Virus record (IMG/VR): IMGVR_UViG_2636415500_000004
Strand: one strand, 5' to 3'
DNA: 12,758 nt
DNA from: a virus
Taxonomy: Duplodnaviria > Heunggongvirae > Uroviricota > Caudoviricetes
Position 1 is the first letter of the stretch. Each line of letters starts with the position of its first letter. The notes under the pieces were generated by a model. That model was not told where the DNA came from. It ran no database searches and worked only from the letters and a program-made list of their open reading frames with translations. The translations under genes and the position numbers were made by a program. Of this stretch, positions 2,858 through 11,597 are shown one piece after another.

Positions 2858-3138
2858 GAGATTGTGGTGCTTTTTGTGGGAGTCATCCACTTACGCACTT
2901 TGTTTTGCCATGCCAGCAGTTAGCTTCTGCTGTAAAACTATTCATGCAGCAAACCTGCACTTCACCACAATGGTTAGCATACTTTTCCTGATTAAGATTT
3001 TGCCAAATATGCTAGCCATTGTTTCATGTATTGGACCTCCTTACTTTTTATTAAAGAGATCCAATATTCACTACTCTGTCCGTATCTCTACTCAGGCATC
3101 AGCCTTCTTCGTTATCGTATACAGACGAGCGATGAATT

Positions 3139-3354
3139 TTAATCAGTAATGATGACATTTGCTGCTGCAGGACCTTTAGCACCACTCTCTATAGAGAAGG
3201 TAACCTTTTGACCTTCAAATAAGGTTCGATAATTATCATTCTGAATCGCAGAAAAATGCACAAACACATCTTTACTACCATCAACAGGAGAAATAAAGCC
3301 GAAACCTTTATCAGCGTTAAACCATTTTACTAAACCAGTCATTTTATTTGACAT
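3139..3354 (-). CDS. cspB: Cold-shock protein, CspA family (71 aa)
   Basis: [38 protein letters not shown]... with cold-shock domain motifs. Long upstream leader. Divergent from cspF. Confidence 0.93.
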
Positions 3355-3560
3355 TCTACATTCCTTAACTTGAGCCTTTCGGCATAAATGGTTTGCATAA
3401 CAGAAACGACTTCGTACTTAATTGGAGAGACTCAAAGAAGGAATAAGTGAATAACACCTGAAATGAGAACTGCTTTAGTAAACTACTTCGTATATCGTCT
3501 GTTCTTCAAACCGACGCAATCATTAACGCATAGTTGAACATATGAAGCAATGTTTATTTT
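3355..3560 (-). promoter_or_regulatory. cspB promoter and long 5' leader (about 160 nt)
   Basis: Minus strand has GCGTTAATG (candidate -10 at 3522-3527) followed by GGTTTGAAGAACAGACG, resembling the cspA cold-box region GGTTTGACGTACAGA. Confidence 0.55.
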
Positions 3561-4011: not shown

Positions 4012-4152
4012 TAAGCAGACTCATTGTGTTTAGGGACATTGTACTGGAAGAAAACATTTTAAACATCAGGCAAATAACCAAGTCACCAGCTAAATAATAA
4101 GTTAACAGACATGAGTCCCGGGATGAGATTCAACATTACCATTGCCCCATTT

Positions 4153-4185
4153 AAAGCACAAAACCCGCTCATCAGCGGGTTTTCT
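4153..4185. terminator. Bidirectional intrinsic terminator; on the minus strand a candidate tR'-like late terminator
   Basis: CCCGCT-CATC-AGCGGG stem with U-tracts on both sides: plus TTTTCTACTTTTTCTT, minus UUUUGUGCUUU. Confidence 0.6.
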
Positions 4186-4228
4186 ACTTTTTCTTAACGT
4201 CGGGTATACAAAGCCCATCGTTGAAAAA

Positions 4229-4257
4229 ATTTTATCCATATTTTTTGAAAAATGCAA
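4229..4257 (-). promoter_or_regulatory. Candidate late promoter (pR'-like) just downstream of the Q-like gene
   Basis: Minus strand TTGCAT (4252-4257), 17-nt spacer, TAAAAT (4229-4234). Sits about 35 nt after the quuQ stop and about 45 nt before the terminator at 4153-4180. Confidence 0.4.
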
Positions 4258-6820: not shown

Positions 6821-6850
6821 AATAAAAACAAAAACCCGCCGAAGCGGGTT
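6821..6850 (-). terminator. Intrinsic terminator ending the relB-relE-hokD transcript
   Basis: Minus strand AACCCGC-UUCG-GCGGGUU followed by UUUGUUUUUAUUUUC; about 70 nt downstream of the hokD stop. Confidence 0.65.
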
Positions 6851-6918
6851 AAGTGCGGGTGCGTTGAGGATGCCTGCCACATCAGAGGTGGCGAGGGATT
6901 TCTCCCCCGCCGGGTCTC

Positions 6919-11181: not shown

Positions 11182-11239
11182 TTTCTGGTGACGTTTGGCG
11201 GTATCAGTTTTACTCCGTGACTGCTCTGCCGCCCTTTTT
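11182..11239 (+). ncRNA. dicF: DicF small regulatory RNA (Hfq-dependent; represses ftsZ and other targets)
   Basis: Sequence UUUCUGGUGACGUUUGGCGGUAUCAGUUUUACUCCGUGACUGCUCUGCCGCCCUUUUU matches DicF as I recall it. Ends in its own terminator hairpin (GGCGG...CCGCC + U5). Lies inside the dicB operon between ydfC and dicB. Confidence 0.85.
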
Positions 11240-11243
11240 AAAG

Positions 11244-11391
11244 TGAATTTTGTGATGTGGTGAATGCGGCTGAGCGCACGCGGAACAGTTAAAACCAAAA
11301 ACAGTGTTATGGGTGGATTCTCTGTATCCGGCGTTAATTGTTAACTGGTTAACGTCACCTGGAGGCACCAGGCACTGCATCACAAAATTCA
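11244..11391 (+). repeat. Perfect 14-bp inverted repeat pair (TGAATTTTGTGATG / CATCACAAAATTCA) forming a long-range stem between dicF and dicB
   Basis: Arms at 11244-11257 and 11378-11391 enclose about 120 nt. The first arm lies about 62-75 nt after the DicF 5' end, consistent with the reported RNase III-dependent longer DicF form. Confidence 0.6.
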
Positions 11392-11408
11392 TTGTTGAGG
11401 ACGCGATA

Positions 11409-11597
11409 ATGAAAACGTTATTACCAAACGTTAATACGTCTGAAGGTTGTTTTGAAATTGGTGTCACTATCAGTAACCCAGTATTTACTGAAGATGCCAT
11501 TAACAAGAGAAAACAAGAACGGGAGCTATTAAATAAAATATGCATTGTTTCAATGCTGGCTCGTTTACGTCTGATGCCAAAAGGATGTGCACAATGA
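11409..11597 (+). CDS. dicB: Cell-division inhibitor DicB (62 aa)
   Basis: MKTLLPNVNTSEGCFEIGVTISNPVFTEDAINKRKQERELLNKICIVSMLARLRLMPKGCAQ; RBS GAGGA 7 nt upstream. The longer track ORF from 11304 is rejected. Confidence 0.92.
   Translation: MKTLLPNVNTSEGCFEIGVTISNPVFTEDAINKRKQERELLNKICIVSMLARLRLMPKGCAQ

Follow-up and report, generated by a model that had tools for sequence, protein, structure and literature searches.

What is encoded in the short intergenic DNA that separates the antiterminator gene quuQ (ydfT) of the Escherichia coli K-12 prophage Qin from its small neighbours ynfS and cspF? The DNA analysed here, referred to throughout as the window, is a stretch of 12,758 nt deposited as a tailed-phage sequence (IMG/VR record IMGVR_UViG_2636415500_000004), and it corresponds to the Qin prophage: 801 bases around the site in question are 100% identical to strain MG1655. 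In the RefSeq annotation the site lies between quuQ, on the minus strand, and ynfS and cspF, on the plus strand; farther down the minus strand follow cspB, ynfU (itself on the plus strand), essQ, ydfR, rrrQ, and rzpQ. We conclude that the site is very probably the late-gene regulatory cassette of this lambdoid prophage, comprising the late promoter pR' with its Q-utilisation (qut) site and, behind them, the terminator tR'. The cassette is typical of the class served by Q-lambda-type antiterminators and textbook in kind, and it was previously unannotated. The feature that decides its identity is a sigma70-dependent pause element, which was absent from the description given in an earlier note made from the sequence alone.

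A probable late promoter with a lambda-type pause element

On the minus strand 3' of the quuQ stop codon (4291-4289) the sequence reads TTGCAT-17-TAAAAT-TTTTTC-AACGATGGG. The -35 hexamer TTGCAT (4257-4252) begins 31 nt past the stop codon and is separated by a 17-nt spacer from the -10 hexamer TAAAAT (4234-4229). The earlier note had called this promoter near-consensus, which overstates a match of only 9/12 in a generic scan; matches of that grade number 22 in the window against 21.2 expected from shuffles, and the promoter match by itself therefore proves nothing. The site stands above chance because AACGATGGG sits exactly 6 nt past the -10 hexamer, a 9-mer identical to that of lambda pR' at equal spacing. 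The pattern TANNNT-N6-AACGATGGG has exactly one match in the window, while shuffles with one mismatch allowed give 0.06 matches. The 9-mer comprises the -10-like AACGAT followed by GGG (4222-4214, minus strand), and in lambda AACGAT serves as the sigma-dependent pause element, where Q is loaded (PMC9388147).

The promoter spacer, which is nearly invariant across close relatives, contains TCAA at -26 to -23 and TGG at -16 to -14, separated by six nucleotides (4248-4236, minus strand). These positions coincide with the Q site annotated at -28 to -22 in the phi80 record and with the 13-bp geometry of the lambda Q-binding element. Sequence comparison suggests that the spacer may be a two-part candidate Q-binding element, with specificity bases that would vary at -25 to -22.

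Transcript maps of the site and the 67-nt RNA

Published genome-wide data sets from E. coli K-12 place a transcription start, a cluster of pauses, and an RNA 3' end at the site. Coordinates of U00096.3 equal window coordinates plus 1,638,200, a relation derived from the published position of ynfS and confirmed by a printed Term-seq 3'-end sequence; the offset from NC_000913.2 to U00096.3 at this locus we take to be +1976. The transcription start site (TSS) comes from the differential RNA sequencing (dRNA-seq) set of the Thomason study, as reused ('nearest TSS') in the supplement to PMC7876045, and is listed at 1640446 on the minus strand of NC_000913.2. With the offset added, this becomes 1642422, or window 4222, where AACGAT has its first A and where a start is expected from lambda; the exact coincidence of the predicted and the listed start in turn supports the offset. 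A start near 4222, which the earlier note had anticipated, is accordingly on record. No entry near the site was found in the supplements of the Cappable-seq and SMRT-Cappable-seq studies, files that perhaps do not hold the full TSS lists.

Pausing was mapped by RNET-seq in K-12 W3110, with reads aligned to NC_000913.2 (PMC7876045). Minus-strand pauses are listed at 1640433, 1640431, 1640430, and 1640429 (window 4209-4205), that is, 13, 15, 16, and 17 nt from the TSS. In the sigma70-affinity sample from the greAB-deleted strain the pause scores reach 6881 at distance 17 and 5783 at distance 16, and the Qin pause ranks as the fourth strongest in the distal-pause (G1d) sheet for that sample. The file comprises four data sheets and contains every Qin pause coordinate four times, from which we infer that the pauses were present in both sigma70 and beta' pull-downs, of wild-type and greAB-deleted cells alike. 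The paper itself makes no mention of a prophage or of Qin (PMC7876045).

The terminator tR' lies at 4183-4160 on the minus strand as the hairpin AAAACCCGCT-GATG-AGCGGGTTTT, followed by GTGCTTT. It begins 45 nt past the -10 hexamer and folds with -17.0 kcal/mol (z -6.6). Term-seq in MG1655 maps an RNA 3' end to 1642356 on the minus strand of U00096.3 (window 4156), with three entries in a file that covers three growth conditions and the class label 'orphan' (PMC7815308, supplementary file 1). The printed sequence at this end finishes in ...GCGGGUUUUGUGC; the U-tract, UUUUGUGC, occupies 4163-4156, and the end falls 8 nt past the GC stem, a spacing typical of intrinsic termination. The mapped start and the mapped end delimit a transcript of 67 nt (4222-4156), an analogue of the lambda 6S RNA and close to the roughly 70 nt foreseen in the earlier note. 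In its predicted fold (-26.2 kcal/mol, z -5.55) an A-rich linker connects a 5' hairpin to the terminator hairpin. The positions that the note had assigned to the promoter and hairpin were all found where it had placed them, and its interpretation of the arrangement as pR'-qut-tR' is supported by a PF03589 Q gene, a mapped start, a pause element identical to that of lambda, a mapped 3' end, and lysis genes downstream.

Term-seq reports a further minus-strand 3' end at 1642188 (window 3988), antisense to ynfS, at an imperfect hairpin spanning 4019-3988 (-9 kcal/mol, z -2.6). This end may mark a back-up terminator or a processing site for pR' read-through. The phi80 record likewise annotates two tandem terminators past pR'.

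The antiterminator QuuQ

The gene immediately upstream, quuQ (5041-4289, minus strand), encodes an antiterminator of the Q-lambda family, as judged from Pfam, structural matches, protein alignment, and the RefSeq annotation. QuuQ matches the Pfam family Antiterm (PF03589) with an E value of 3.6e-54; this is the family of Q-lambda, separate from those of Q21 and Q82. Against the solved Q-lambda structure (PDB 7UBM) the match extends over the full length in two blocks (E 4.6e-36), and the insert between these blocks fits the DnaJ_CXXCXGXG zinc-finger model (E 1.3e-08). Residues ~111-195 of QuuQ hold four CXXCXGXG-like repeats, corresponding to two predicted zinc sites, whereas Q-lambda has two repeats and one zinc. 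In a protein alignment QuuQ groups with the Q proteins of phi80, HK225, and others in carrying this extra CXXC...CXXC pair in the 'arm', placing it in the long-arm, phi80-like subgroup; the lambda and P22 Q proteins are without it. The long arm is also found in many enterobacterial Q proteins besides that of phi80.

The Q-lambda arm touches positions 11-13 of the 13-bp Q-binding element as well as sigma region 4, and the helix-turn-helix body of the protein contacts positions 1-4 (PMC9388147); the long arm of QuuQ may alter the contacts made to the element and to sigma region 4. The N-terminal segment of lambda Q, together with NusA, forms a nozzle on the exit channel for RNA, and substitution of its G39 abolishes antitermination (PMC9388147). 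This segment is well conserved in QuuQ, G39 included, in the alignment with the phi80, HK225, lambda, and P22 proteins.

Comparison with characterised late promoters

Among the closest counterparts is the pR'-qut-tR' region of lambda, which lies, as in Qin, behind a homologous Q gene. Its promoter consists of the -35 hexamer TTGACT, a 17-nt spacer, the -10 hexamer TAAATT, and the gap TGACTC ahead of AACGATGGG, which begins 6 nt past the -10 hexamer; the corresponding Qin elements are TTGCAT, 17 nt, TAAAAT, TTTTTC, and AACGATGGG. Both regions show a sigma70-associated pause ~16-17 nt from the start, followed by an intrinsic terminator and then the lysis genes. The lambda spacer carries TGAA-N6-TGG where Qin has TCAA-N6-TGG at equal positions, giving the common motif T(G/C)AA-N6-TGG. 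The two differ in their -35 hexamers, in the length of the terminated RNA (194 nt for the lambda 6S RNA against 67 nt for Qin, a third of the lambda length), in a 43-residue insert that gives QuuQ its second CXXC...CXXC pair, and in the ~1.8 kb of cold-shock and other small genes that Qin holds ahead of its holin gene.

The phi80 promoter shares with Qin the -35 hexamer TTGCAT (17-nt spacer, -10 hexamer TAGATT), a TGGA just upstream of the -10 hexamer, and a terminator stem that ends at ~+69, and its Q protein, gp17, belongs to the same long-arm subgroup, with 36.5% identity to QuuQ over the full length. It departs from Qin in its pause element, AACGCTGGG (AACGCT in place of AACGAT), which follows the gap CATCTCT and so begins 7 nt past the -10 hexamer, in its spacer (GCGG-N6-TGG, where Qin has TCAA), and in having no cargo ahead of the holin gene. 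The phi80 record annotates the -35 and -10 elements and the terminator along with the Q site. P22 resembles Qin in producing a short terminated leader from P-late; its record annotates P-late, a lambda-like qut site, the RNA 5' end, and t-late at +31 to +59. Its Q protein, gp23, is of the short-arm lambda type, however, and its promoter (TTGACT, 17 nt, TAAATT, TGACTC, then AACGATGGA) is nearly identical to that of lambda.

Conservation and spread of the cassette

The site is matched in 2461 of 5426 complete E. coli genomes. Conservation beyond K-12 was followed in two sets of loci. The close set comprised 80 viral contigs whose Q proteins are 94-100% identical to QuuQ. The promoter is followed by AACGATGGG in 76 of these 80, and three more carry a one-base variant, AATGATGGG or GACGATGGG, that retains the critical A2 and T6; the last contig ends at the Q gene, so that promoter and pause element are retained in 79/80 loci. 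Across the variants of these loci the -35 hexamer is invariant, as is most of the spacer, and the -10 hexamer appears as TAAGAT or TAGGAT in relatives. The terminator stems vary among close relatives (CCCGCU/AGCGGG, CCUCGC/GCGGGG, CCGC/GCGG) at a constant distance from the promoter, and the DNA beyond them is unrelated.

For the family set, one genome per species was combined with phage records, yielding 58 distinct Q-lambda-type cassettes from Enterobacterales, among them Escherichia, Salmonella, Klebsiella, Enterobacter, Erwinia, Pectobacterium, Proteus, Morganella, Xenorhabdus, and other genera. Exact AACGATGGG occurs in 40/58, the 6-nt gap past the -10 hexamer in 51/58, and a hairpin followed by a T-run in 57/58. 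The terminator stem ends at a median of +63 (between +51 and +74 in 47 of the 57), and the Qin stem, ending at +62/63, represents the family mode, with lambda and its 194-nt 6S RNA as the outlier. In the spacers, T-26 is present in 54 of 58 cassettes, C or G stands at -25, and -21 to -19 are A-rich; G-15 is found in 49/58 and the full TGG at -16 to -14 in 31/58. Among the cassettes listed, just lambda, P22, and two more (L112 and L123) showed a lambda-like TGAC beside the pause element.

Two groups of phage records deserve separate mention. PhiR42_1 encodes a Q protein identical to QuuQ and an identical pR'-tR' stretch, with the same cold-shock cargo ahead of the holin gene and the same order of lysis genes; the Qin layout is therefore that of a phage genome deposited as complete. 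Records of Stx2c-converting phages encode a Q protein 94% identical to QuuQ, behind which the promoter and pause element match those of Qin and the terminator stem differs. This arrangement (L083, 3001-3900, and L175, 2769-4009; Stx2c-converting phage LC727877) precedes stx2A/stx2B on their own strand, at a distance of ~2.6 kb; the interval contains an open reading frame (ORF), a DNA methylase gene, and genes for tRNA-Met and tRNA-Arg. A comparative paper on Stx-phage pR' regions offers nothing specific on Q proteins of this kind.

A model for late transcription in Qin

These data can be assembled into the following model. The published maps show that sigma70 RNA polymerase starts at 4222 in ordinary laboratory culture, pauses 13-17 nt downstream with sigma70 still bound, and releases a 67-nt RNA ending at 4156. 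By virtue of the identity with lambda, the pause would be caused by sigma70 region 2 binding the non-template strand anew at the -10-like AACGAT, and release of the RNA would represent intrinsic termination at the hairpin and U-tract (4183-4156). Once made, QuuQ would, by homology, bind the spacer site approximating TCAA-N6-TGG at -26 to -14 and dock on the paused complex, its conserved N-terminus forming with NusA the nozzle described for Q-lambda. Polymerase modified in this way would then bypass both tR' and the terminator past cspB, transcribing cspB in the sense direction and cspF, ynfS, and ynfU in antisense before entering essQ-ydfR-rrrQ-rzpQ.

The first lysis gene on this path is essQ (2385-2170, minus strand), annotated as a holin gene in RefSeq and matching Pfam Phage_holin_2_1 with an E value of 4.4e-34; ydfR, rrrQ (Pfam Phage_lysozyme), and rzpQ come after it. 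From the 3' end at 4156 to the essQ start the path measures ~1.77 kb, in agreement with the approximately 1.8 kb of cargo that the earlier note had described ahead of the holin gene. It runs antisense to ynfS and cspF, takes in the cspB leader (3123-3515, the Rfam cspA thermoregulator) and cspB in sense, passes a minus-strand hairpin at 2857-2838, and runs antisense to ynfU. The sense reading of cspB and the antisense reading of cspF, ynfS, and ynfU expected of late transcription are deduced solely from the orientation of the genes. The hairpin, listed by the scan as AAACCCGCTCAGGCGGGTTT followed by TTTATTATCT, is strong and terminator-like, and corresponds to the second terminator proposed in the earlier note. 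The strongest minus-strand Term-seq ends past cspB fall elsewhere, at 1641224/1641226 (window 3024/3026). A 3' end with the plus-strand reading of the hairpin is listed just ahead of the minus-strand Term-seq entries, and on these grounds the hairpin may serve ynfU.

Points against the assignment and competing explanations

Several observations weigh against the assignment of the site as a working Q-dependent late cassette. Qin is a defective (cryptic) prophage, literature searches on quuQ/ydfT function and on a Qin late promoter returned nothing relevant, and no evidence bearing on quuQ expression in K-12 came to light. The placing of the start depends on the +1976 offset between genome versions, for which the coincidence of predicted and listed start is the support. 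The lambda pR' pause lies at +16/+17, and the Qin pauses, at 16-17 nt from the TSS, fall about one base beyond it, a difference within the uncertainty of the TSS. The DNA-contacting arm of QuuQ has an extra zinc module not present in Q-lambda. In lambda, moreover, a -35-like TTGACT lies one base upstream of the pause element, and in the lambda loading complex sigma region 4 is repositioned to this -35-like site (PMC9388147); Qin has TTTTTC there instead, and the details of Q loading may therefore differ. Finally, we infer the binding of QuuQ at the pR' spacer from sequence comparison, and by analogy a QuuQ-driven read-through that would reach cspB and the lysis genes.

The competing explanation that survives best is that the cassette is an intact-looking fossil, in which promoter, pause, and terminator all work and the Q switch is never thrown in K-12, leaving as its sole present effects a constitutive dead-end RNA and the insulation of cspB and cspF from upstream transcription. 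The cryptic state of Qin, the lack of any report on quuQ function in the literature searched, and the 'orphan' class of the 3' end at 4156 speak for it. Yet quuQ is a full-length ORF whose product is identical to the Q protein of the complete phage record PhiR42_1, the functionally important residues of QuuQ are conserved, and 1257 E. coli records contain the region with an identity of at least 99%. We regard this account as unlikely, if credible, and it bears on the present use of the element, not on its identity.

Alternatively, the 67-nt RNA might be mainly a trans-acting regulatory small RNA (sRNA), with its part in the Q switch secondary or lost in the defective prophage. The precedent is StxS of Shiga toxin phages, which, like the Qin RNA, is a constitutive short by-product of Q-regulated termination in the lysogen, and which demonstrates that pR'-tR' transcripts can become Hfq-dependent sRNAs; StxS differs in being processed from a longer precursor, binding Hfq, and having known targets (PMC7547250). 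The Qin RNA is constitutive and ends in a terminator hairpin, an A-rich linker, AAGAAAAAGUAGAAAA, joins its two hairpins, and the intergenic region 'cspF.ydfT.IGR' is a node in the feature table of an Hfq study by RIL-seq (ligation and sequencing of interacting RNAs). A RIL-seq-based classifier, however, scores cspF.ydfT.IGR at just 0.0024 for the probability of being an sRNA, the U-tract, UUUU ahead of GUGC, is short, and an Rfam search of the window found no family at the site. The linker varies in close relatives, whereas promoter and pause element are conserved. An sRNA role in place of the Q switch is improbable on this evidence, and an sRNA role as such would be compatible with the Q-switch reading.

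Lastly, it is very improbable that the tR' hairpin is simply the terminator of the convergent plus-strand genes cspF and ynfS beside a coincidental minus-strand promoter match, for even though the hairpin is symmetric, folds on the plus strand with -15.1 kcal/mol, and was listed by the generic scan on that strand only (tail CTACTTTTTC), the start, the pauses, and the 3' end have all been mapped experimentally on the minus strand, Term-seq under its three conditions shows no plus-strand 3' end at 1642370-1642409, and the hairpin accompanies Q and pR' in relatives that lack cspF. As an exclusive explanation the plus-strand terminator is contradicted by the minus-strand maps; the sequence does allow bidirectional use.

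A possible 5'-terminal hairpin in late transcripts

With the site read as the Qin late cassette, the 67-nt RNA exhibits one further property of possible general interest. Minimum-free-energy folding predicts a hairpin at its very 5' end (4222-4196, minus strand), with an outer helix of AACG/CGUU and an inner helix of GGGC/ACCC, such that the RNA copy of the pause element would itself form the 5' arm. In the Qin RNA nucleotides 2-4 are paired with a probability of 0.99, compared with 0.35 when the tails are shuffled. Predictions for lambda, P22, and most relatives give comparable hairpins, with the first 4-5 nt paired to a complement at ~+20 to +27, and divergent pause elements are often accompanied by a matching partner (AACAAU/AUUGUU, AAUGA/UCAUU, UCGUG/CACGA, UCAU/AUGA, UAGUG/CACUA). 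Over 47 curated sequences the pairing probability of nucleotides 2-4 was 0.63, against 0.32 with shuffled tails (class-level Wilcoxon p 0.011), and in a class-level permutation of arms against tails 1 of 5000 permutations equalled the native pairing. Sequences of the AACGAT class show a strong signal, those of the AU-rich classes a weak one.

An alignment-based test with MAFFT and RNAalifold failed, the hairpin arms not being alignable across relatives because loop lengths vary. Anchoring on the promoter only misplaced many starts, and a test for a 4-bp helix had no power. The papers searched hold no description of a 5' hairpin, the older subscription literature lying outside their coverage. 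The folding results raise the possibility, tentative and to our minds rather doubtful, that Q-lambda-type late transcripts begin with a conserved hairpin in which the RNA copy of the pause element (AACGA) supplies the 5' arm and a matching complement at ~+20 to +27 the 3' arm. If it is under selection, the hairpin would be an undescribed part of the late leader. Possible roles would then include protection of the 5' ends of both the late mRNA and the short RNA, or an action just outside the Q nozzle after the 5' end has threaded through.

Other features in the window

A 51-codon ORF with a TTG start (4102-4257, minus strand) spans the promoter, the short RNA, and the terminator, and appears in PhiR42_1 as the coding sequence of a hypothetical protein. 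A Pfam search of the window proteins gave no match for it, and as its start falls within the -35 hexamer we treat it as probably spurious and not a real gene.

Two Rfam matches below the gathering score were recorded elsewhere in the window. An STnc100-like match (11232-11441, plus strand; 34.4 bits, gathering score 47) lies directly 3' of DicF (11183-11234). A 2026 preprint on Pas sRNAs links STnc100 to the PasD sRNAs of prophages, which are found near PF03589 Q genes, and reports K-12 to be without Pas genes. A weak isrK-like match (6829-6910, minus strand; 25.1 bits, gathering score 50, E 0.053) overlaps a terminator-like hairpin at 6850-6833, upstream of rem.

Significance

With this assignment, an abundant 'orphan' RNA 3' end of E. 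coli K-12 acquires both a name and a mechanism, and one of the strongest sigma70-dependent promoter-proximal pauses of the genome is explained; the source papers of the Term-seq and RNET-seq data did not connect either with a prophage Q switch. The assignment also identifies, on the K-12 chromosome, a lambda-like pause and terminator cassette that can be used to study Q loading by a long-arm, phi80-type Q protein. Because a 94%-identical Q and the same pR'-pause-terminator layout lie upstream of stx2c in Stx2c-converting phages, the properties of this cassette bear on toxin expression.

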